Positions 38,852 through 61,478 of a stretch of DNA of 64,000 bases are shown here, piece after piece. The stretch is from contig CAVWIG010000017.1 in the NCBI GenBank assembly GCA_963754945.1, positions 64,001-128,000 on the forward strand, given 5' to 3'. Within the stretch, counting starts at the first letter, position 1, and each line of letters begins with the position of its first letter. The notes beneath the pieces are model-generated. The model did no database searches, was not told the DNA's origin, and saw only the letters and a list, made by a program, of their open reading frames with translations. This stretch comes from Methanotrichaceae archaeon (GTDB lineage Archaea > Halobacteriota > Methanosarcinia > Methanotrichales > Methanotrichaceae). Made by a program: the position numbers and the translations under genes.

Positions 38852-39010
38852 ATTGCAGTATTGATATGGGTAGTGAAGGCTGCTAATTAGTTCGGGACTT
38901 GGATCCCGTCATAGAAAGTAGCCAGACTTCTTGAGCACCCAAATGCGTCGCTGAACGCGAATGGCAATTCACCACCAGGGATTACTCATCTGCCCATATC
39001 GCAACTGCGA
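38852..39010 (+). ncRNA. Candidate IS110 bridge RNA
   Basis: Noncoding 5' region of IS110; closing stem GATATGGGTAG/CTGCCCATATC enclosing stem-internal loop-hairpin modules. Confidence 0.6.
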
Positions 39011-39017
39011 GGGCATA

Positions 39018-40150
39018 ATGTCTGGAAAAAGAGAAATAGCTTGCGGAGTTGATGTACACAATAAGTTTATTGTGGCGACTATTCTTTCCAGCGACGGCTT
39101 GAAGCTTCAAGATCGATTTGAAACAAGCTTAGAAGAGCTTTTGAAGTTCAAGAATTGGCTAAAGGAGAATGGTTGCCATAAAGTGGCCGTGGAATCTACG
39201 GGCAATTACTGGCTTCCGATTTACAATGTCTTAGAGGGGTCTGTAAATTTTATTCTGGCAAATGCCTATCAGATTAAGCATATTCCAGGAAGAAAGACAG
39301 ACGCGCTGGATTCCGAGTGGATTGCGGAGATTTGTTTGAAGAATCTGATCTCTCCATCCCGAATCTTTCCCAGAGATCACCGCGAATTGAGATCTCTTAC
39401 AAGGACGAGAGAGAGCCTGATTAAAGTAAGAACCAAGATCAAGAATCGGGTTACTCACGAGCTAGAGGCTGCATGTATCAAGCTTTCCTCGGTGCTATCT
39501 GACGTTTTTGGCAAGTCAGGAAGACATATCGTCGATGGACTTCTTAACGGCATGGATTTGGAGAAGATATTGGAAAGCATACCTTCGAAAAGGGTAAGAG
39601 CGATTAAAGAGGAGATACGTGGAATCATCCAGGCTAACCTATCTCCTTCACAGATCTTTCTCCTTCGATCTCATCTGAATATGATTGATGCCATTACCAA
39701 ACAGATTGTAGAAATCGACGCTAAGATTTCGGATCAGATCTCTTCACGGAATGAAGACATGAGGATCGCTTTATCCATGCCGGGAATGGGAGTCGTTTCT
39801 GCATCTACTATCCTGGCAGAGGTCGGAGATTTCAGAGACTTCAGTTCCCCGAATAAGCTTGCTGCTTATTGCGGACTTGTGCCATCTGTTTATCAATCGG
39901 CAGGCAAGCAGATAAACGGCCATATCACAAAGCATGGTTCACCTCACATAAGAGGGATGATTATTGAGGTGGCACATGCCATTATTCGATCAAAGCGAAA
40001 CTCGAAACTCAAGAAGTTCTTCTTGAGGATCAAGGCAAGAAGAGGTACAAAAATTGGTGTCGTTGCTCTTGCAAGAAAAGTGCTCTGCATACTTTATCAT
40101 TTGCTGATCAGTCAAGAGCTCTATCAAGATGACCTGCTCAGCAAACCAAG
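39018..40150 (+). pseudogene. IS110-family recombinase, 3'-truncated by IS5 copy B
   Basis: GVDVH, VESTGNYW, GRKTDALD (DEDD), MPGMG, YCGLVPSVYQSAG, ALARK. Confidence 0.9.
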
Positions 40151-41435
40151 GAGGGTTTCGATTTAGTGTTGGTTAATGAAGCCTTAAATTCTTGCGTTAA
40201 TATTTTCAATCTTTATAGTGGTTTTTTAGCATATTTCACCCCTAAATTGGCTTATTAGATTTCAATTTACCTTGTTGTTTCTAATTTTTGCGCTTTTTTA
40301 GAGAGCTTCCGCTAGGCTGTTTGTTTATGCACTAAATATTTCAACTGTTCCAGGTTGTAAACGACCGAATTCATCATGAATTTTACTCCAGCTCTTGCGA
40401 CAGTTGTTACATAAACATGTGCTCCCTTATGCCCCCGCTTCATAACAGCGAAGCATCTTTCGATGTGCGATCGCGTTTTACTGATTCTCTTATTCCTCAG
40501 AAGATCTATGATTCCAAGCTTGTGACCTCTTGTAGCTTTTTTCATGGCTGCATCATATCCTCGAGTTTTTGCACCATCATATCCCTTATCGGCGTAACGT
40601 GGTAGCCCTTCAATTCCAAGATCTACCTGACTATCGTGTACAGAAGCAGTTGTAGTCTCAAAATATCTGATAAGGTGGTAATTGGTATCGATTGAGATAT
40701 GACCTTTATATCCGAAAAAGGATTTGACACCCTTTTTTGCCCAACTTCCCTCATTTATTGGCTCTTCTTCGAGTCTCTGTGGTTTGGCCTTGTCATCAAT
40801 AATATTATTTGAAATACCAATTAGCTCTTTATCAAACTCCTGATTCAGGCTCGTACTGGTGGCTTCGGAATCTTGACCTTCCTTTTTGTCCCCGCCTTGC
40901 TCGTCTTTCTTGTTCCTCTTCCGACCTGGGTCCGAAGTTATGAAGGTTGCATCCTGGATAGTGCCATTCTTTACAGTAAACCCCATCTCATCGAGCTGCC
41001 TTTGAAGCTCATTCCAAAGATCATCGTATACGTCGCACTTAATCAAACGTTCACGGAATAGCCAAACTGTGCTGAAATCAGGAATTACTTCAGTGGTGCC
41101 AAGGAAAATACGAAAAGAGATCCTATCCGCAACCTGTCGCTCCAGTTCTGGATCTGTTAGACCAAACCAATGCTGAATTACGAGAGCTTTCACCATAATC
41201 ACGATGTCAATGTTCGGACGACCTCCGCGGCTAGTTTTATTTTTGTATATCAATGGTTCCAAAAATCTGAAACGCTCCCAATTGATCAACGATCCGATCT
41301 CGGATAGATCATCTCCGAGGGCTTTTACTCGAGCATATTCTGCTCGAATGGCAAAATCAATGAGAGTCCTCATGCATTATATTATAGTATTAATAGTATA
41401 TAAGTATTTCGATTGATTAGTTTTTCGAAACTCTC
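40151..41435 (-). mobile_element. IS5-family element, copy B (1285 bp, no target duplication)
   Basis: Near-identical to copy A; flanks CAAG and ATAG differ. Confidence 0.92.
40312..41373 (-). CDS. IS5-family transposase
   Basis: Two amino-acid differences from copy A. Confidence 0.93.
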   Translation of the reverse strand: MRTLIDFAIRAEYARVKALGDDLSEIGSLINWERFRFLEPLIYKNKTSRGGRPNIDIVIMVKALVIQHWFGLTDPELERQVADRISFRIFLGTTEVIPDFSTVWLFRERLIKCDVYDDLWNELQRQLDEMGFTVKNGTIQDATFITSDPGRKRNKKDEQGGDKKEGQDSEATSTSLNQEFDKELIGISNNIIDDKAKPQRLEEEPINEGSWAKKGVKSFFGYKGHISIDTNYHLIRYFETTTASVHDSQVDLGIEGLPRYADKGYDGAKTRGYDAAMKKATRGHKLGIIDLLRNKRISKTRSHIERCFAVMKRGHKGAHVYVTTVARAGVKFMMNSVVYNLEQLKYLVHKQTA

Positions 41436-47308: not shown

Positions 47309-48239
47309 TCAAAACTCGAAGAGCTCTGTGCTCAGGTATCGCTCGCCAGTATCTGGCATTATTGCTACAACGAGCTTTCCCTTATTCTCCGGCCTGGCAG
47401 CCACCTGAAGGGCAGCCCAGGCTGCTGCGCCAGAAGAGATTCCGACAAGTATCCCTTCTTCTTTGGCCAGCCTTCGGGCAGTTTTTATTGCGTCCTCGTA
47501 CTCTACCTTTACAATCTCATCCACTAGATCGCGTCGTAGCACATCCGGCACGAAGCCTGCTCCGATTCCCTGGATCTTGTGCGGTCCAGGCTTGCCTCTT
47601 GAGAGGACCGGAGATGCTGCGGGCTCGACTGCGATGGTGCGAAATCCCGGTCGGCGGGACTTGATGACTTCGGCTATACCGGTTATTGTTCCGCCAGTGC
47701 CCACGCCCGCCACAACGAAGTCCACCTTTCCGTCTGTGTCTCTCCAGATCTCCTCTGCTGTAGTCTTGCGATGGATCTCAGGATTGGCCGGGTTCCTGAA
47801 CTGCTGGGGAATGTAGTAATAGCGCGGGATCCTTTGCCAACATTTCTTCTGCAGTTGCTATCGCTCCTTTCATCCCTTGACTTCCTGGGGTCAACACCAG
47901 ATCGGCTCCCAAGGCTTTGAGCAATTTCCGCCGCTCGATCGACATGGTCTCCGGCATCACCAGGACCAGCTTGTAGCCCCTGGCGGCGGCGACGAAGGCC
48001 AGGGCGATGCCTGTGTTTCCGCTGGTTGGTTCCAGGATGATGGTGTCTGGTTTGATGTGTCCTGCTTTTTCAGCGGCGTCGATCATGGACACTCCGATTC
48101 TGTCTTTTACACTGCTCAGGGGATTAAAAGACTCCAACTTGACTACCACTGTGGCGTCTATGCCTTTAGTTACTCTATTTAGTTTGACCAGAGGCGTATT
48201 GCCGATGGTCTTGGTTAGATCCTCGTAGATCCTTACCAT
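47309..48239 (-). pseudogene. cysK: Cysteine synthase A with one +1 frameshift at 47826-47828
   Basis: GNTPLV, SVKDRI, PTSGNTG, QQF.NPAN, GVGTGGT, HKIQGIG, ERYLST. Confidence 0.9.
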
Positions 48240-49938: not shown

Positions 49939-50015
49939 GCATTGCAGGGATGCTTGTTCGCGCGAATACTTCTAAGGAAATTTTTTTGTTTAATCCAGAA
50001 AGGAGGACGAATATA

Positions 50016-52121
50016 ATGGCAGTGGAAGAAGTGGCACCGAACCTACCTGAGATCGGCAAAGAGCCAGAGATGCCTGGCATGGGTAGGATGGGTATGGATC
50101 ATGAAGCGCAAAAAACAAGTCATGAGCACAAAATGCATGACATGGACCTGCGCCCTAACGAACCCCATAAAACACATCGAGGCAGACACGAAGGCCACGT
50201 CACTGAGGACTTTAAAAGAAGATTCATAATATCTTTAATTTTGACCCTCCCCATCCTTGCCCTCTCTCCGTTTATTCAGGACCTATTTAGATTTAAATTA
50301 GAGTTTCCGGGCTCTATTTATGCTCTGTTCCTGCTTTCCACATTCGTCTATTTCTATGGCGGCTATCCATTCCTGAAGGGTTTCTTGAATGAGATCAGGG
50401 ACAACAACATCGGAATGATGACCCTGATCGCAACGGCCATAAGCGCCGCCTATTTTTACAGCTCGGCAGTGGCCTTCGGCCTGCGAGGAGAGATCTTCTT
50501 CTGGGAGCTTGCCACGCTGATTGATATCATGCTTCTCGGCCACTGGATCGAGATGCGCTCCGTGCTGGGAGCCTCACGTGCTTTAGAGGAGCTGGTCAAA
50601 ATAATGCCCTCCGAAGCCCACCTGCTAAAAAACGGGCAGACTGTGGACGTCAAGGTTGAAATGCTGAAGCCAGGAGACCGAGTTCTGGTCAAGCCCGGAG
50701 AGAAAATACCTGTCGATGGGGCTGTGATAGAGGGAGAGACGAGCGTCAATGAGTCGATGCTGACCGGAGAATCCAAGCCGGTTACGAAAAAGGCTGAGGA
50801 CAACGTGATAGGCGGCTCCATCAATGGTGAGGGCTCGATATCGGTGGAGGTAAGAAAGATTGGCTCAGAGACTTACCTCAATCAGGTCATTGAACTGGTC
50901 AGGCAGGCTCAGGAGAGCAAGTCAAAGACCCAGGATCTGGCCGACAATGCTGCTCGCTTGCTCACAATCATATCGCTCAGCGTCGGAGCCATCACTCTGG
51001 CAACCTGGCTTTACATTGGCAAGGACTCCTCCTTCGCCGTCGAGAGGGCGGTTACAGTCATGGTCATATCCTGTCCACATGCTTTAGGTCTGGCTGTCCC
51101 ACTGGTGGTTGCAGTCTCGACTTCTCTAGCAGCAAAATCAGGACTGCTGATCCGGAATAGACAGGCATTTGAGAGGGCCAAAGACCTTCAGGCTGTGGTC
51201 TTCGACAAGACAGGAACGCTGACCGAGGGCCGGTTCGGAGTAACTGATATCGTACCCCTTTCGGAGTCAGATGAGAAGGAAATCCTAAGATTGACTGCAT
51301 CCCTGGAAGCAAACTCAGAGCATCCCATAGCCGCAGGAATTGTGAACGACTCGTTGGAGAAAGGGATCGAGCTTGTCCACGTTCATGAGTTCAAAGCAAT
51401 CCCCGGAAAGGGCGTAGAGGGCCAGGTCCATGGAAAAAGATGGAGTGTCGCTAGCCCCGGATACCTGCGGGAAAGCAAGATCGAACTTAAGGACGAGAGG
51501 GTAGAGAAGCTGGAGCAACAGGGAAAGACCGTTGTTTTCCTGCTCGAAGAAGACCGCCCCATCGGGGCCATAGCCCTGGCTGACATCATAAGGAAGGAGT
51601 CCCGAGAGGCCATCGAGAAGCTTAAGGCGATGGGCATAAAGTGCATGATGCTCACCGGGGACAACAGGTTTGTGGCCAAGTGGGTCGCCGAGGAGCTGGG
51701 GCTGGACGATTTCTTCGCCGAGGTGCTGCCTCACGAAAAGGCGGAGGCCATAAAAAAGGTCCAGAAGGATTACATTGTGGCCATGGTAGGAGACGGGGTC
51801 AACGACGCTCCTGCCCTCGTGCAGGCTGACATTGGAATAGCCATTGGCGCGGGTACTGACGTAGCGGTCGAGTCGGCTGACATAGTTCTCGTCAGGAACG
51901 ATCCCAGAGACGTCGTGAACATAGTCGGCCTGTCGAAGAAAACTTACACGAAGATGTTTCAGAACCTTGTCTGGGCTACGGGTTACAACGCCTTTGCAAT
52001 TCCCTTGGCGGCCGGAGTTCTGTACAGCTACGGCGTACTCCTCAGCCCTGCCATCGCTGCAATCTTCATGAGCGCGAGCACTGTAATTGTGGCCATAAAT
52101 GCGAGATTGCTTAAAATGTAG
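50016..52121 (+). CDS. copB: Copper-translocating P1B-3 ATPase (CopB type)
   Basis: His/Met-rich N-terminus, LTGES, CPHAL, DKTGT, SEHP, GDGVND, YN and MS..ST motifs; AGGAGG before ATG 50016. Confidence 0.92.
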   Translation: MAVEEVAPNLPEIGKEPEMPGMGRMGMDHEAQKTSHEHKMHDMDLRPNEPHKTHRGRHEGHVTEDFKRRFIISLILTLPILALSPFIQDLFRFKLEFPGSIYALFLLSTFVYFYGGYPFLKGFLNEIRDNNIGMMTLIATAISAAYFYSSAVAFGLRGEIFFWELATLIDIMLLGHWIEMRSVLGASRALEELVKIMPSEAHLLKNGQTVDVKVEMLKPGDRVLVKPGEKIPVDGAVIEGETSVNESMLTGESKPVTKKAEDNVIGGSINGEGSISVEVRKIGSETYLNQVIELVRQAQESKSKTQDLADNAARLLTIISLSVGAITLATWLYIGKDSSFAVERAVTVMVISCPHALGLAVPLVVAVSTSLAAKSGLLIRNRQAFERAKDLQAVVFDKTGTLTEGRFGVTDIVPLSESDEKEILRLTASLEANSEHPIAAGIVNDSLEKGIELVHVHEFKAIPGKGVEGQVHGKRWSVASPGYLRESKIELKDERVEKLEQQGKTVVFLLEEDRPIGAIALADIIRKESREAIEKLKAMGIKCMMLTGDNRFVAKWVAEELGLDDFFAEVLPHEKAEAIKKVQKDYIVAMVGDGVNDAPALVQADIGIAIGAGTDVAVESADIVLVRNDPRDVVNIVGLSKKTYTKMFQNLVWATGYNAFAIPLAAGVLYSYGVLLSPAIAAIFMSASTVIVAINARLLKM

Positions 52122-52215
52122 CTTTAGCTTGGATACTCTGCCGATCTATAAATACTAAGAGCTGGTCATAGTTACATGTTGAAAATTTCATAAAATAGAG
52201 AGTGAGGATGATAGA

Positions 52216-52517
52216 ATGGCTAAATCGGGAAGAAACGCGCTGGTCTCACTGCTGGCATGCATAGGGTTATTGATCGCAATGATTAGCCTCACCGCAGGAA
52301 GTATGATGGGGCAAGGTGGCATGATGGGAAAGACGATGGGTCAGTGCATGAGCAAAGAATGTGACACCATGATGAATACCTGCCGGACAACATGACCTGT
52401 ATGGTGGCACAATCCATGATGGGAACCTGTCCCGCCAACAAGACCTGCTACAAGATAGAGGCCCAGAAATCGGTCGCATCTGGCAACGTATCAACTAAAG
52501 ATCAGCACGTCCACTAA
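52216..52517 (+). CDS. Secreted Met/Cys-rich small protein (one frameshift at about 52383)
   Basis: Adding one C gives 100 aa: signal peptide then MMGQGGMMG..CMSKECDTMMNTCPDNMTCM..MMGTCPANKTC..HVH. Confidence 0.65.
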
Positions 52518-52658
52518 CTTGAACGCCGGACTGAAGGCCAAATTACCGCGATCAGTTCGAGAGGTGTGCAGATTCTCTCCTGTATGCCCTCGTTAATTGG
52601 AGAACATTAGATCACATTTTTAATAATTGATAGTATTAGTTTTGCTGAGTTGAGATTC

Positions 52659-54431
52659 ATGATTGCAAAAGACCCAATCTGCGGGATGCCGGTGGATGCC
52701 CAAACTGCGAAGTTCAAGGCTGAGATCAGGGGCGGTGAATATTATTTCTGCAGCGAAGGCCACATGCGCAGCTTTCTTGAAGCCTCCAGGATCGCCTACT
52801 TCTCCATGGAGATAGGCATAAAGAGCGATATACCGACTTACAGCGGCGGGCTTGGCGTGCTGGCAGGCGACTCGGTGCGTTCCTGCGCGGATCTAAGGAT
52901 TCCCCTCGTAGCAGTAACCCTCGTCAGCAGGAAAGGCTATCTGAGGCAGCAGATAACCGAATGGGGCGATCAGCTAGAACATCCCGACGAGTGGGAGCCA
53001 TCCAAGTTCATGAGGCTGCTTCCTGATACAGTAAAGGTGTGGATCGACGGCAGAGATGTAAAGATAAAATCCTGGCTCTACGACCTTCAGAGTCCGACGG
53101 GTGGGCTGGTTCCTGTGCTTTTCCTGGATACGGATGTCCCAGAGAACGATCCCGAAGATAGAGAGATCACCAGCTTCCTCTATGGAGGCGATGAGAGGTA
53201 CAGGCTGAAACAGGAGATGGTCCTGGGAATCGGCGGCATGAGGATGCTCGAAGCACTGAGCCTCAAGATCAGCAAGTACCACATGAACGAGGGACATTCG
53301 GGCCTCTTGACTCTGGAGCTGCTGAAGAAGAACGACATGAACGCTGACAAGACAAGGGATCTATGTATCTTCACGACCCATACACCAGTCGAAGCGGCCT
53401 TTGATAAGTTCTCTTACGATGATGCTCAAGCCTTCTTAGGAGATGAATTCCCACTGGAAGAGCTGAAAAAGTACGCTGGATCGGATAGGCTAAACATGAC
53501 CCTTCTCGCCTTGAACCTGAGCAAGTACGTGAACGGAGTAACCAAAGCTCACATGGAGTATTCCAAAAATCTCTTCCCAGGTTATCATTTAAGCGCTATA
53601 ACCAACGGCGTTCACCCTTACACCTGGACTTGCCAGCCTTTCAGGGATCTCTTTGACAAGCACATCCCTGGATGGGCAAACGAGCCCGAGCTGCTGGTCA
53701 GGGTCGATGAGATTCCCCACCAGAAAATCTGGGATGCTCATATTAAAGCCAAGAAATTGCTGATCGATTACATCAACGAGAACACCGAAGCGGGCATGGA
53801 TATTAATGCTCTCACGTTGGGTTTCGCACGGAGGGCTGCGTCCTACAAGCGTGCAACGCTGATCTTCTCGGATCTGAACAGGCTGAGGGACATAAACAGG
53901 AGTGGAAAGTTACAGCTCATCTTCGCGGGAAAGGCACATCCGAGAGACGAGGCAGGTAAGCGCATTATCAAAGAGATATACAACTACAGCTCTCAGTTGA
54001 GAGGAGATCTTAACATAATCTACCTCGAAAATTACAATATGAAACAGGCGGGCAGGCTCACCTCTGGCGTCGATCTATGGCTGAACACGCCGCTACCGCC
54101 TAACGAAGCATCGGGAACGAGCGGCATGAAAGCGGCCTACAACGGCGTAATAAATTTCAGCGTCCTAGACGGCTGGTGGATCGAGGGCTGCATCGAGGGC
54201 ATCACTGGATGGGCGATAGGCCCGAAGCCGAGAGAACTTATGGTAGAAAGAGAAAAAAGGGCTCGCGAGCTGAAAGATCTGTACAATAAACTGGAATATC
54301 TGGTAGTTCCAATGTTCTACGATAACAGAGATGCCTGGACGAACATGATGAGGAACTCTATAGGAAAGATTGCCTATTACTTCCACAGTCACAGGATGAT
54401 GCGAAGATACGCTACGGAGGCTTATCTGTAG
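52659..54431 (+). CDS. glgP: Alpha-glucan (glycogen/maltodextrin) phosphorylase with N-terminal YHS domain
   Basis: DPICGM..YYFCSEGH then AYFSME, YSGGLGVLAGD, HMNEGH, FTTHTP, ITNGVH, AGKAHP, EASGTSGMK. Confidence 0.92.
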   Translation: MIAKDPICGMPVDAQTAKFKAEIRGGEYYFCSEGHMRSFLEASRIAYFSMEIGIKSDIPTYSGGLGVLAGDSVRSCADLRIPLVAVTLVSRKGYLRQQITEWGDQLEHPDEWEPSKFMRLLPDTVKVWIDGRDVKIKSWLYDLQSPTGGLVPVLFLDTDVPENDPEDREITSFLYGGDERYRLKQEMVLGIGGMRMLEALSLKISKYHMNEGHSGLLTLELLKKNDMNADKTRDLCIFTTHTPVEAAFDKFSYDDAQAFLGDEFPLEELKKYAGSDRLNMTLLALNLSKYVNGVTKAHMEYSKNLFPGYHLSAITNGVHPYTWTCQPFRDLFDKHIPGWANEPELLVRVDEIPHQKIWDAHIKAKKLLIDYINENTEAGMDINALTLGFARRAASYKRATLIFSDLNRLRDINRSGKLQLIFAGKAHPRDEAGKRIIKEIYNYSSQLRGDLNIIYLENYNMKQAGRLTSGVDLWLNTPLPPNEASGTSGMKAAYNGVINFSVLDGWWIEGCIEGITGWAIGPKPRELMVEREKRARELKDLYNKLEYLVVPMFYDNRDAWTNMMRNSIGKIAYYFHSHRMMRRYATEAYL

Positions 54432-54581
54432 GGCTGAAACTCCTGGATGCCTCTGAGATGAACCCTATATGTTTAATCCCTTAGTACGATACAAATTTAT
54501 TCTCAGTTCGATACAAATTAAGCTACTAAAGGGCTTCAAGTTTCGAGGCAGCTTAATATAATTCTGGATATTGGTGATAAA

Positions 54582-54764: not shown

Positions 54765-55130
54765 ATGAGAGGACGTAATTCAGCAATCATTGCTATAGCA
54801 TTAATCTCAATCATAAGCTTATCCGGATGCATCAATCAGGAAAAGCTTCCGCCGAACACAGTTGAGATCAAGAACTATAACTACAGTCACTATGCCTTCA
54901 CTCCGGAGACGATCACAGTGCCTGCAGGTACGGAAGTAACTTGGATAAACCGCGATTCAGGTAACCATACCGTTACAAGTGACCTTATATTAACAAGTAC
55001 AAAGGAGATGTTCGACTCTGGAATCATAAGGCCAGGTGAAAACTACAGCCACGCTTTCAATGATCCTGGATATTACAGTTACCACTGCAAGGTTCATACA
55101 TACATGAAGGGCTATGTAATTGTGAAATAG
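54765..55130 (+). CDS. Cupredoxin (plastocyanin/amicyanin-like) lipoprotein
   Basis: Lipobox LSGC; VTWIN.D..NHTV; YHCKVHTYMKG type-1 copper ligands. Confidence 0.9.
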   Translation: MRGRNSAIIAIALISIISLSGCINQEKLPPNTVEIKNYNYSHYAFTPETITVPAGTEVTWINRDSGNHTVTSDLILTSTKEMFDSGIIRPGENYSHAFNDPGYYSYHCKVHTYMKGYVIVK

Positions 55131-55864: not shown

Positions 55865-56014
55865 ATGACGATGAAAGATCCTGTCTGCAAAATGGAGCTG
55901 GATGAGAAGGAAGCGAAGTTCAAGGCCGAATACCAGGGAAAAACTTACTACTTCTGCAACCTCTCCGATAAGAAGAAGTTTGAAGCGAATCCGAAGAAAT
56001 ACCTGGAGTCCTGA
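55865..56014 (+). CDS. Stand-alone YHS domain protein 3 (49 aa)
   Basis: MTMKDPVCKMELDEKEAKFKAEYQGKTYYFCNLSDKKKFEANPKKYLES; GGTGA RBS. Confidence 0.9.
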   Translation: MTMKDPVCKMELDEKEAKFKAEYQGKTYYFCNLSDKKKFEANPKKYLES

Positions 56015-56026
56015 TTGGGAGCCAAA

Positions 56027-56986
56027 ATGAAGATAGTTGTAGCAGACCCGATCTTCCTTCCTAATGATTATAGAGCCAGGTTGAGAGCCCTTGGCGAGCT
56101 TGAGGTCTACGACAGCGTGCCCTCTTCACTGGATGAGTTCATGGGAAGGATAAAGGATGCAGAGATAGTCGTAGTGGGAAGATATGGTGTTTCTGCCGAA
56201 GCATTCCGAAATGCACCTAGGCTAAAGTTGATATCCCTTTGGCAGACCGGCTACGACAACGTCGATCTGAAAGCCGCAAATGAACATGGTGTGATCGTAT
56301 CCAACGTTCCCAACTACGCCTTCGACTCCGTAGCAGAATTCACCTTCGCCCTTGCCCTCAATCTGCTCAGAAAAGTCCACATAGCTGATATGAACTTACG
56401 CAAGGGCAAGTTCAATTGGAAAGACTACATCGGCAATGAGCTTATGAGCAAGACTCTGGGAGTGCTCGGAACAGGCAATATAGGAAAAAGGGTAATACAG
56501 ATCGCTCAGGGGTTCAACATGAATGTGCTCTCAACTTCTGCTCACCCTAGCCCAGAGAAGGCAAAGAAGCTGGGGGCAAAGTTCGTTGACCTCGACACCC
56601 TGCTTTCAGAGAGCGATATTGTGACTTTGCATCTCCCGCTCACGCCAGAGACCGAGCACATGATAGGTGCCTTACAACTGGCCAAGATGAAACCAACTTC
56701 AATCCTGATAAACACTGCAAGAGGTAAAATAATTGATGAAGAGGCCCTTGTGGAAGCGCTCAGGGAGAAGAAGATTGCGGGAGCTGGCCTGGATGTCTTC
56801 GAGAAGGAGCCGCTACCTTTGGACAGTCCTCTTCTGGAGCTGGACAACGTTGTTCTTACGCCGCATATAGCCTTCCTGTCCGAGGAATCTATAGACGAAT
56901 GCACCTACGTGTGCGTAGAGAACATCGAGATGTTCGCAACAGGCCAGCCTCAGAATGTTGTTAACCCCCGCGGGCTAGCGGCATAA
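56027..56986 (+). CDS. D-isomer-specific 2-hydroxyacid dehydrogenase
   Basis: GYDNVD, GTGNIG, LHLPL, INTARG, DVFEKEP, TPHIA. Confidence 0.93.
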   Translation: MKIVVADPIFLPNDYRARLRALGELEVYDSVPSSLDEFMGRIKDAEIVVVGRYGVSAEAFRNAPRLKLISLWQTGYDNVDLKAANEHGVIVSNVPNYAFDSVAEFTFALALNLLRKVHIADMNLRKGKFNWKDYIGNELMSKTLGVLGTGNIGKRVIQIAQGFNMNVLSTSAHPSPEKAKKLGAKFVDLDTLLSESDIVTLHLPLTPETEHMIGALQLAKMKPTSILINTARGKIIDEEALVEALREKKIAGAGLDVFEKEPLPLDSPLLELDNVVLTPHIAFLSEESIDECTYVCVENIEMFATGQPQNVVNPRGLAA

Positions 56987-59152: not shown

Positions 59153-61049
59153 TCATCTCTTCGCCACCCGCAGACCATTCATCACAGCTAGTATCTCAGA
59201 GGTCTCGTGGAAGAAGACCGCAGCAGCAACGCTCAAAATTCCGATGAGCGCAGATGGGATCATCACAGCCAGGACGAGCAACGAGAAAGCAATATTCTGG
59301 CTGCTAATCTTCCTAGCCTTCTTGCCGATATTTATTGCAAACGAAATTTTCGCTAGGTCATCAGCCATAAGCGCGACATCCGCTGCCTCAATAGCGGCGT
59401 CCGTGCCCGCAGCTCCCATAGCAATTCCCACAGTAGCCTGGGCCAGAGCAGGCGCATCATTTATTCCATCTCCCACCATGGCAACAGCGCCATATTTCTG
59501 CTCTAGCTCCTTCACAGCTTGGGTCTTTTCATCAGGCTTGAGGTTTGCCCTGATCTCATTCACACCTAACTCCTGTGAGATTGCCTTGGCTACTAAATCG
59601 CTATCACCAGTTAGCATTACCACCTTGAGCCCCATTCTATTGAGCTCCTCTATGACCTCTTTTGCCTTGGGCCTTATCTCATCTCTTATACCGATGATAC
59701 CCTCGATGCCTTCAGAGGTTCCCACGAGGATCGTGGTCTTTCCCTCGCGTCTCAGCCGCTCAATCTCGGTACCCTCGGGAATGCTCAATCCCAGCCCTGC
59801 GAAAAACTCGGGTTTGCCTGCATAAACGGTCTTACCTTCTATATTGCCGCTGACACCCGAACCTATGAGGCACGCGAAGTTTTCCACTGCCAGGGGTTCG
59901 AGTTTCATCTCCGTGGACCTTTCAACAATCGCCTGGGCCAGGGGATGCTCCGAAAGATGCTCAACGCTATAGGCCCGCCGCAGAACATCGGTCTCTCCTC
60001 CCTTCAGTGCCAGGATATCGGTAACTACTGGCTTGCCCCTGGTAAGGGTTCCCGTTTTGTCGAAGGCTACTGCCTTGATCTTGCCTAAATTCTCAAGGTG
60101 AACTCCGCCCTTAATGAGTACGCCTTTCTTTCCGGCCATTCCGATTCCTGCTGCTATGGCCACGGGAGTCGACATTACCAGAGCACAGGGCGCCGCTGCA
60201 ACCAGGAGGACGACGGCTCTTCTACCCCACTCGGATATACCGCCATCGAAGAAGAGAGAGGCTGCGACCAAGAGAGCCGCACTCAGGAGGACCAGCGGAG
60301 AATACCTATCGCCGAAACGCTCGATGAAAAGCTGAGCCTTGCCCTTCTCTTCGTGGGCCTCCTCAACCAGACGAATTATCTTTGATAAGGTGTTATCTTC
60401 GAAGGCCGTAGCGGCTCTGATTTCCAGAGCGCCTTCTCTGTTGATGGTGCCTGCAAAGACTCTCATGCCCTCGTTCTTCTCGACCGGAATGGATTCCCCT
60501 GTAACTGGAGCTTCATCAATACTGGATTTTCCTCTTTCGATTACTCCATCTGTTGGAACGGCTTCACCAGGCCTGACAACGAACAGATCTCCCACTTTAA
60601 GGTCTTTCACAGGTACAGTTACTTCTTTTCCATCGATGAGAATCCTGGCCTCCTTTGGGGCAAGGTCGAGAAGTTCCCTTATGGAGCCCCTGGTCCTGGC
60701 ATAGGTATATTCCTCCAATCCCTCTGCAGCGCTGTAAAGGAAAACCAGGAATGCTGCTTCATCCCAAATGCCCAGCAGCACCGAGCCAATAGCGGCTGCC
60801 ATCATGAGGATCTCAATTCCGACCCTCTTCTCCTCAAGAAACTCCTCGATGCCCTCTCTGGACCAGTGATAACCGCCTAGCAGGATGGCAACAATGAATA
60901 CCGCGTTCTCGGAATACGCCGTGATTAATCCCAGGTGCGCTAACCCAAATGCGGATACTGATACTGTTAGCAAACCGGAGATCAAGGCATTGCGCATTAT
61001 AAGGGTACTCGTACCATTTCCCATCAGAGATATCTTCCACTTCGCTCAT
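59153..61049 (-). CDS. Heavy-metal P1B ATPase (P1B-4-like, Zn/Cd/Co); likely +1 frameshift at about 61001 near the start
   Basis: VTGES, APCAL, DKTGT, SEHP, GDGIND, HETSE; upstream ATG 61049 with GGAG gives MSEVEDISDGKWYEYP. Confidence 0.88.
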
Positions 61050-61106: not shown

Positions 61107-61478
61107 TCAACTTTCATTGATGTGTTTTAACCCTTCATGGAAAAGCGCAACCACATGTTCATCATCGAGGCTATAGTATGCGATTTTACCTTCTTTACGA
61201 AGCTTGACTATGCGTCTATCCTTAAGAATTCTTAACTGGTGGGATATTGCCGAGTTTTCCATGCCAAGCACGAAAGATAGATCGCAGACGCACATTTCCC
61301 CGGATAACAGAGTATTTATTATTCTTAGCCGGGTAGGATCGCCCATCGTCTTAAATATCTCAGATAAGCGCTGCACTGCCTTATCGCCGAGCTCTCTCGT
61401 TTTTGCCTTTTTTACTAGCTCTGGATGTATGCAATAGACTTCACAATTTTCGTCTATACTGGTATTATGCATGACCAT
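61107..61478 (-). CDS. ArsR/SmtB (CadC/ZiaR-like) metal-sensing repressor
   Basis: CEVYC, DPTRLRI, EMCVCD, SAISHQLRIL, DDEHV..H..E. Confidence 0.92.
   Translation of the reverse strand: MVMHNTSIDENCEVYCIHPELVKKAKTRELGDKAVQRLSEIFKTMGDPTRLRIINTLLSGEMCVCDLSFVLGMENSAISHQLRILKDRRIVKLRKEGKIAYYSLDDEHVVALFHEGLKHINES

Follow-up and report, generated by a model that had tools for sequence, protein, structure and literature searches.

In a 64,000-nucleotide stretch of DNA from a Methanotrichaceae archaeon (assembly GCA_963754945.1, contig CAVWIG010000017.1, positions 64,001 to 128,000 of the forward strand; hereafter the window), we found a gene whose product joins an N-terminal YHS/TRASH-type putative metal-binding module to a compact α-glucan phosphorylase of the GT35 family (Table 1). 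The fusion is an uncharacterised combination of two known parts, whose architecture is visible in the Pfam labels of databases; a search of the full text of open-access papers and preprints found no paper on a YHS- or TRASH-domain phosphorylase. What we contribute here is the form found in a methanogen lineage, with an Asp-Cys-Cys-His (D-C-C-H) ligand set and a position in a copB island, together with the contrast between a rigid and a tethered junction and a tree of the phosphorylase core. A link of the fusion to metals is supported by gene context, both at loci where it follows a CopB pump and in a comparison of fused with unfused bacterial loci. As to function, we lean, with somewhat less than even confidence, towards a metal-gated release of glucose-1-phosphate that would supply ATP during metal stress, and consider a structural zinc finger nearly as likely as metal gating.

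The open reading frame (ORF) ends at 54431 and could start at 52650 (TTG) or at 52659 (ATG), the latter being the likely start because homologues begin with MIAxDP.... An earlier note on this DNA, made from the sequence alone, had described a YHS domain in frame with a compact GT35 phosphorylase that retains an intact pyridoxal phosphate (PLP)-lysine motif, and both parts of that description are borne out. The YHS family (Pfam: PF04945) is matched with 36.3 bits (E 5.7e-9, cut-off 30.3) over residues 4-41 of the 590-residue protein (7-44 of the 593-residue reading), covering positions 2-38 of the 47 in the profile, and the module scores 40.4 bits in a six-frame search of the genome. The enzyme part matches the 'alpha-glucan family phosphorylase' model of NCBIfam (TIGR02094) with 527.9 bits, against a cut-off of 191.7, and the Pfam phosphorylase family (PF00343) with 101.5 bits (E 5.1e-29, cut-off 27). 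Both domains share one frame with no stop between them, and a protein database search returned a 100% match to the window protein (P0001) that likewise carries PF04945 and PF00343.

The same note had allowed that the fusion might be a singleton or an assembly artefact, which is now ruled out. The genome is a metagenome-assembled genome (MAG; completeness 87.7%, contamination 3.2%), in which two separate genes could conceivably be read as one, but the frame is uninterrupted and the archaeal fusions form one well-supported clade. Since many independent assemblies, drawn from several sources and with complete chromosomes among them (for example those with loci L016 and L041), show the same YHS and phosphorylase architecture, a chance ORF or a mis-join is excluded, and the probability that we are dealing with an artefact of assembly or annotation is negligible.

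The enzyme part looks functional, and from its conserved residues and modelled fold we predict a catalytically competent compact glycogen/α-glucan phosphorylase. In an alignment of 92 sequences, the PLP motif EASGTSGMK (E483-K491), which aligns with EASGTSGEK of the Segatella copri enzyme, is invariant, as are R391, R392, K397, H208 and H213, which align to the CRRFATYKRA and NEGH segments of that solved enzyme; for the S. copri phosphorylase (ScGP), the phosphate- and substrate-site residues are given as R507, R508, K513 and H316 (PMC12912991). An AlphaFold2 model of the window protein, built on an alignment of 92 relatives, reaches a mean predicted local distance difference test score (pLDDT) of 90.6 and a predicted TM-score (pTM) of 0.92 and has the GT-B phosphorylase fold by both Foldseek and VIA. 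Its best solved match is the S. copri glycogen phosphorylase 9l6i (Foldseek E 7.6e-48, TM 0.85), to which VIA aligns it with a Z of 32.9 and a root-mean-square deviation of 2.3 over 554 residues. A glucan substrate is plausible because GT5-like synthase candidates and a GH57 enzyme are encoded on the same contig as the fused gene.

The N-terminal module (DPICGM...YYFCSEGH) can be aligned both to YHS proteins that stand alone and to its counterparts in other fused phosphorylases. Of the ligand tetrad D/C-x2-C ... C-x3-C that Linder (2015; PMC4626032) describes, the first three positions are present as D5, C8 and C31, and the fourth is occupied by His35 rather than by a Cys; histidine is a metal ligand, and it is common at this position to the fused module and to the second of three free-standing YHS mini-genes nearby. 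Across the 49 fused rows of the alignment, the ligand columns read D43/C2, C48/N1, C37/D12 and C42/H7, where the single non-ligand substitution is the Asn in L024, and G9, F30 and F39 are invariant. Mean pairwise identity is 0.52 for the module and 0.68 for the core; the module is thus less conserved than the core but clearly constrained. In the model, DSSP assigns strands at residues 2-4, 11-13, 19-23 and 26-30, which form β-hairpins, followed by a helix at residues 33-41 that bears H35, all at a pLDDT of 88-93; judged from this modelled secondary structure, the layout is that of a treble clef.

The module is cut short and stands immediately in front of the enzyme. It lacks a match to the final ~9 positions of the YHS profile, so that there is no C-terminal F-x3-P-x2-Y tail, and the chain passes after F39 directly into the first strand of the core, IAYFSME. 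Among the best 120 hits taken from a search of 5.8 billion proteins, the spacing between the fourth ligand and this strand is nine residues in 116 of the 116 in which it could be measured, and in the model the junction has a pLDDT of 93-95.

Distribution and origin of the fusion

The full ligand tetrad is found in 113 of these best 120 hits, with the other seven being gene calls that start at an internal Met, or fragments. The most frequent type is D-C-C-C (63), followed by D-C-D-C (36), the D-C-C-H of the window protein (13) and D-C-C-D (1). Among species-representative genomes, 36 of 80 loci are fused, 43 unfused and one masked, and in metagenomes the figures are 48 fused, 28 unfused and four unclear, again of 80. 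When the family is clustered at 50% identity, two of the best 150 representatives (P0121 and P0153), of 11,260 family hits, clearly cover the module, and the fusion therefore constitutes one branch of a large family.

From the core alone (94 rows), we computed a quick maximum-likelihood tree under LG+G4, with branch support from the Shimodaira-Hasegawa-like approximate likelihood ratio test (SH-aLRT). Left out of the underlying alignment (A1) and of the tree were L032 (in-frame stops), L056 (masked N-terminus) and the truncated L052 and L078, and the 15 P-proteins in A1 were hand-picked from fused hits, so the share of fused sequences in the tree is not a frequency. The archaeal fusions form one clade of 47 rows (SH-aLRT 99), in which L021 alone lacks the module, and their sister group consists of unfused Methanosarcinales enzymes. 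Ligand variants mark clades: the window protein falls within a D-C-C-H sub-clade of seven rows (support 100), and further sub-clades are defined by D-C-D-C (11 rows, support 97) and by an all-Cys set (six rows, support 100). The CPxCG...CFCSxNC form of the module is carried by L058, L063, L070 and L091.

Within the window's own order, the fused form occurs in two of 105 genomes, namely that of the window (G000), which has a second, frame-broken copy on contig C36, and G004; about 30 genomes of the same order carry the unfused compact enzyme, at 59-63% identity. This rarity, together with the nesting of the window protein among Bathyarchaeia sequences, suggests that the fused gene was acquired by transfer in this lineage. 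A local fusion of a neighbouring mini-gene with a phosphorylase was considered and rejected, because the window module is nearer to other archaeal fused modules (48-70% identity) than to the local mini-genes (30-43%) and the core nests inside the fused clade.

Several irregular copies deserve mention. The C36 copy (C36:10225-12007) is 85% identical to the window protein and breaks frame after GVLAGDS, and on contig C32 of the same genome (C32:33409-35709) there is a near-copy of the long, DUF3417-type phosphorylase of contig C13, split into three frames; these broken copies may be pseudogenes, assembly errors or the trace of a co-binned strain. In another archaeon MAG, an unfused phosphorylase (L137:8001-9683) has a short N-terminus (MDRILHDPVYKM...) that is possibly, from its sequence, the remnant of a lost YHS module.

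A different build of the same pairing is found at 16 bacterial loci, labelled as Ignavibacteria and Bacteroidota, Omnitrophota, Planctomycetota (of the Kuenenia/Brocadiaceae kind), Nitrospirales and delta-proteobacterial. Here a full-length YHS domain, with its tail kept, is followed by a linker of 15-20 residues; in the AlphaFold2 model of this build the module has a pLDDT of 76-90, and residues 45-55 fall below 50, as an unstructured linker. Three of these loci were placed in the tree, where they branch apart from the archaeal fusions and among unfused bacterial enzymes. The tree requires at least seven presence/absence changes of the module, and one old fusion followed by many losses could also be invoked, but two independent fusions are the simpler reading because the junctions differ and the placements in the tree are separate. 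The pairing of YHS and phosphorylase thus probably arose twice independently.

Gene neighbourhoods of fused and unfused enzymes

In the window, a CopB-like copper P1B-type ATPase is encoded directly upstream of the fused phosphorylase, at a gap of 537 bases. Of the sequencing runs listed for 51900-54500, none is of RNA, and five, all of DNA, cover small parts of it. The same order, CopB and then fused phosphorylase, is found on contig C36 of the same genome (gap of 44 bases), on contig C5 of G004 and at L204, where CopB is 84% identical and a mini-gene and a membrane protein lie downstream; at L205 the upstream P1B-type ATPase is a more distant one (45% identical). In G004, a 555-residue ORF is inserted between the two genes, and at this locus (L126, G004:C5, 5498-7803) the fused phosphorylase has stayed intact, in contrast to the mini-gene and CopB, which are split between several frames. 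Methanosarcina sp. T3 (L016) keeps the phosphorylase, with an HMA protein 5 kilobases (kb) upstream and a pair of mini-gene and dehydrogenase, and has no pump within 8 kb of the fused gene.

The bacterial build offers a broader comparison. Metal genes, counted as P1B ATPase, CusA, CusB, HMBD protein, YHS-cupredoxin fusion or an extra YHS gene, lie within 8 kb of the fused gene at 8 of 16 loci and of the unfused gene at 0 of 64, where three of the 16 fused loci have flanks of about 2 kb or less and the 64 unfused ones cover 720 kb of flank. The eight positive loci carry four phylum-level labels and involve two kinds of efflux system; the unfused enzymes are embedded among housekeeping genes, such as those for ribosomal protein S2, ribosome recycling factor and menaquinone synthesis. 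In metagenomes, 7 of 48 fused loci (L204, L205, L206, L226, L230, L241 and L243) and 1 of 28 unfused ones (L283) have a P1B ATPase at a distance of up to 7 kb.

The neighbours of archaeal fused genes include pyruvate kinase, phosphofructokinase, phosphoglucomutase, glycogen synthase, GH57 and type II/III cation ATPases. Counted over the first genome set, with the compact enzyme fused or unfused, the recurrent neighbours are pyruvate kinase (13 loci), GT4/GT5 synthase (9), GH57 (7), histidine phosphatase (6), phosphoglucomutase (5) and phosphofructokinase (5), along with one cluster of ATPases in which 16 of 17 loci have type II/III P-type cation ATPases and the seventeenth is the copper ATPase of L034. 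Loci with Cation_ATPase_N are L019, L036, L039-L041, L044, L046, L051, L065, L067, L068, L074-L076, L081 and L092. This recurrence is a hint that glycogen breakdown genes and ATP-driven ion pumps may be linked more widely.

The remaining features of the metal island around the fused gene are collected in Table 1. Each of its three free-standing YHS mini-genes directly precedes another gene, encoding the CopB pump, a cupredoxin and a 2-hydroxyacid dehydrogenase, respectively, and their fourth ligands differ, being Cys, His and Asp in mini-genes 1, 2 and 3. Mini-gene 3 and the dehydrogenase are in the same frame and meet at 56014/56015, and a stop-codon read-through joining them was considered; the pair is conserved in L016 and in G004, where the two overlap in different frames. 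The YHS-cupredoxin pair is a single fused protein in bacteria (L135:12662-13177, Pfam YHS and Cupredoxin_1). The 59-residue ORF between the pump and the phosphorylase has a Met/Cys-rich tail (MMGQGGMMGKTMGQCM...) and, by composition, may be a small copper-binding membrane protein. A gene for a small membrane protein lies between the cupredoxin and mini-gene 3, and farther along the island there are genes for two rhodanese proteins, a DUF2933 protein and an ICMT-like protein.

The metal island is bracketed by two copies of a DDE transposase, at 40312-41373 on the reverse strand and at ~73568-74629 on the forward strand (contig C17, beyond the window), which are identical over their first 70 residues; an IS110-family transposase is encoded at 38961-40166. 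At 47309-47725 and 47778-48239, on the reverse strand, two adjacent ORFs resemble the C-terminal and the N-terminal half, respectively, of a single cysteine-synthase-like PLP enzyme, whose gene may, from this arrangement, have been split in two.

Table 1. The fused gene, its parts and the surrounding metal-related features, in window coordinates.
Feature	Position	Strand	Details
YHS-phosphorylase gene	52659..54431	+	590 aa plus stop; Pfam and NCBIfam matches
YHS/TRASH-type putative metal-binding module	52668..52781	+	residues 4-41; Pfam match, AlphaFold2 model
Putative ligands	D5 52671-52673; C8 52680-52682; C31 52749-52751; H35 52761-52763	+	alignment
Nine-residue junction M36-R44	52764..52790	+	fourth ligand to core strand IAYFSME
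GT35 catalytic core	52791..54425	+	residues 45-589; TIGR02094; PLP lysine K491 at 54129-54131
Free-standing YHS mini-gene 1, 47 aa	49795..49938	+	66.7 bits; 11 bases before ATPase ORF
CopB-like copper P1B-type ATPase, His-rich N-terminus	49950..52121	+	TIGR01511 637 bits, TIGR01525 638.8 bits
Small Met/Cys-rich ORF, candidate gene, 59 aa, hydrophobic N-terminus	52216..52395	+	between pump and phosphorylase
Free-standing YHS mini-gene 2, 47 aa	54582..54725	+	six-frame YHS search; upstream of cupredoxin gene
Cupredoxin-type copper protein, lipoprotein-like N-terminus	54765..55130	+	PF00127, PF13473
Free-standing YHS mini-gene 3, 49 aa	55865..56014	+	abuts 2-hydroxyacid dehydrogenase ORF 56015-56986
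Second heavy-metal-type P-type ATPase	59153-61024	-	same metal island
ArsR-family regulator	61107-61478	-	same metal island

Proposed metal gating and its alternatives

The earlier note had inferred a metal- or redox-gated storage-glucan phosphorylase, and this interpretation is supported in part. Metal-gated release of glucose-1-phosphate is the reading that we favour because of the pump neighbours and because a copper-activated YHS enzyme is known. The class IIIc adenylyl cyclase of Mycobacterium phlei responds to 1-10 μM Cu2+ with activation only if it has its YHS domain, for which D178, C181, C204 and C208 are proposed as ligands and which is joined through a linker of 8-11 residues (Linder, 2015; PMC4626032); no other YHS enzyme is known to have been tested.

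By analogy, the module of the window protein would bind one metal ion through D5, C8, C31 and H35 and, fixed by its nine-residue junction in front of the core, would sit at the classical place of N-terminal regulation and subunit contact. The site would be occupied by a thiophilic metal, in the copB island most likely Cu(I), and occupancy may shift the position of the module, with a change in activity, in assembly state or in access to the active site. In cells under metal stress, glycogen breakdown would thereby deliver glucose-1-phosphate to glycolysis, and the ATP gained may feed the neighbouring P-type pumps. That the YHS domain senses cytoplasmic Cu(I) or another thiophilic metal, that it thereby drives glycogen breakdown to yield ATP for adjacent efflux pumps, and that this arrangement was invented at least twice is, taken as a whole, a proposal that we make more tentatively still.

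A number of points weigh against this proposal: 1) the five CopB-linked loci represent one island, inherited or moved as a block, and amount to about one observation; 2) related bacterial loci are not independent observations either; 3) 1 of the 36 fused loci in the genome set (L034, which is of the bacterial build) and 0 of the 43 unfused ones have a copper-type (P1B) ATPase as a neighbour; 4) most archaeal/Bathyarchaeia fused copies lie among glycogen and glycolysis genes, not among metal genes; 5) Asp/Cys/Cys/His and D-C-D-C sites would suit Zn(II) at least as typically as Cu(I); 6) the invariant junction and the high pLDDT of the model fit a fixed structural element; and 7) in crystals of toluene-4-monooxygenase, the region that resembles YHS carries no bound metal (PMC4626032). 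The third of these counts gives no support to a rule that members of the archaeal clade generally lie in a copper context.

The strongest alternative is a constitutive structural zinc finger that caps or replaces the N-terminal helical region and sets stability or quaternary structure, with no sensing involved; the position in a copper island would then be a by-product of island mosaicism. Besides the constant nine-residue junction and the glycogen and glycolysis neighbourhoods of the Bathyarchaeia copies, this is favoured by the uninterrupted pLDDT of 88-95 from the module through the junction, by the high pTM of the model and by the occurrence of ligand sets that contain Asp and His. A further match of the YHS profile is to the solved phenol hydroxylase PhN (E 1e-4), an enzyme that reportedly holds a structural zinc on four Cys. 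In addition, TRASH-type domains are classed as treble-clef zinc fingers (PMC4999995), and the helical domain of the closest solved relative is described as serving oligomer assembly (PMC12912991). On the other hand, sister clades, at 59-63% identity, manage with no module of this kind, the flexible linker of the bacterial build is odd for a structural cap, and the contrast in metal neighbours between fused and unfused bacterial loci would need another explanation. We regard a structural finger as a serious but tentative possibility.

Rather than gating the enzyme, the module could act as a docking or hand-over device that contacts YHS mini-proteins or YHS-bearing pumps, passing on metal or tethering the enzyme. 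The three mini-genes of the window island speak for this, as does the finding that extra YHS genes occur beside fused loci only (L016, L045, L061, L031 and L034, with further cases at L127, L128, L134 and L139, where L127 equals L034 and L128 equals L031, and in metagenomes at L236, L238, L241 and L243); the CopA that adjoins the bacterial fusion L034 itself begins with a YHS domain. Most fused loci, however, are without an extra YHS gene, and we consider docking unlikely.

Less probable again is a thiol redox switch, in which oxidation of the Cys ligands would free the metal and alter activity when the anaerobe meets oxygen. Its ligands are cysteines, its hosts are strict anaerobes, and genes for ferritin/rubrerythrin-like proteins and for flavin reductases lie near some relatives (four loci each), but nothing specific argues for it. 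Thiol chemistry is disfavoured, and metal ligation favoured, because the sub-clades in which a Cys is replaced by Asp or His keep the domain.

Glycogen phosphorylase is a textbook case of allosteric and covalent control, and we know of no metal-controlled one. Should the YHS module indeed gate the enzyme, cells would have a direct coupling between heavy-metal stress and an energy reserve, a post-translational link not previously described. The gene's travelling in islands for copper and metal efflux would then be accounted for, and a widespread and barely studied domain would gain a second tested function; were the module merely a structural zinc finger, the fusion would be an ordinary domain variant. 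The question is directly testable, as the protein is small and soluble, unfused relatives at about 60% identity provide natural controls, and natural ligand variants (C-C-C, C-C-H, C-D-C and all-Cys) can be used for comparison.

Comparison with known systems

As in the M. phlei cyclase, only a very short linker (nine residues, against 8-11 in the cyclase) separates the YHS domain of the window protein from a catalytic domain, and the ligand pattern is D-x2-C ... C-x3-C/H. The two differ in that the domain is C-terminal in the cyclase and N-terminal in the phosphorylase, in the class of enzyme, and in the His fourth ligand and the shortened profile match of the window module.

The closest solved structure is the 'clade 2' glycogen phosphorylase of S. 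copri (PDB: 9L6I/20YR; 34-36% identity), which shares the catalytic residues and likewise has no tower helix (PMC12912991). It is regulated by assembly, with adenosine monophosphate (AMP) driving the transition from pentamer to decamer and the helical domain building the pentamer (PMC12912991). Unlike the window protein, it has ~106 further N-terminal residues, a C-terminal β-sheet domain and no metal module, for a length of 852 residues as opposed to 590.

With the classical GT35 enzymes (muscle and liver glycogen phosphorylase, Escherichia coli GlgP and MalP), the window protein shares the GT-B fold, the PLP lysine motif and the phosphate-site arginines. Their N-terminal 57-63 residues have no counterpart in it: VIA alignments start at model residue 1 or 26, opposite residue 58-64 of the mammalian enzymes and residue 90 of 9l6i. 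Both the peptide that becomes phosphorylated and the first helices of the region for AMP and subunit contacts lie in this N-terminal stretch, and classical phosphorylases are controlled by phosphorylation and nucleotides.

The unfused compact TIGR02094 phosphorylases of Methanosarcinales and Bathyarchaeia have a core 59-66% identical, a similar length and glycogen and glycolysis neighbourhoods, but they begin 10-25 residues before the IAYFSME strand and do so without a metal module. The module itself belongs to the same domain family, and occurs in the same islands, as the N-terminal YHS/TRASH domains of copper P1B ATPases, such as the CopA with YHS and HMA domains at L034:4316-7042, and as the free-standing mini-proteins; elsewhere, then, YHS domains are found on transporters or alone, whereas in the window the partner is a cytoplasmic catabolic enzyme.

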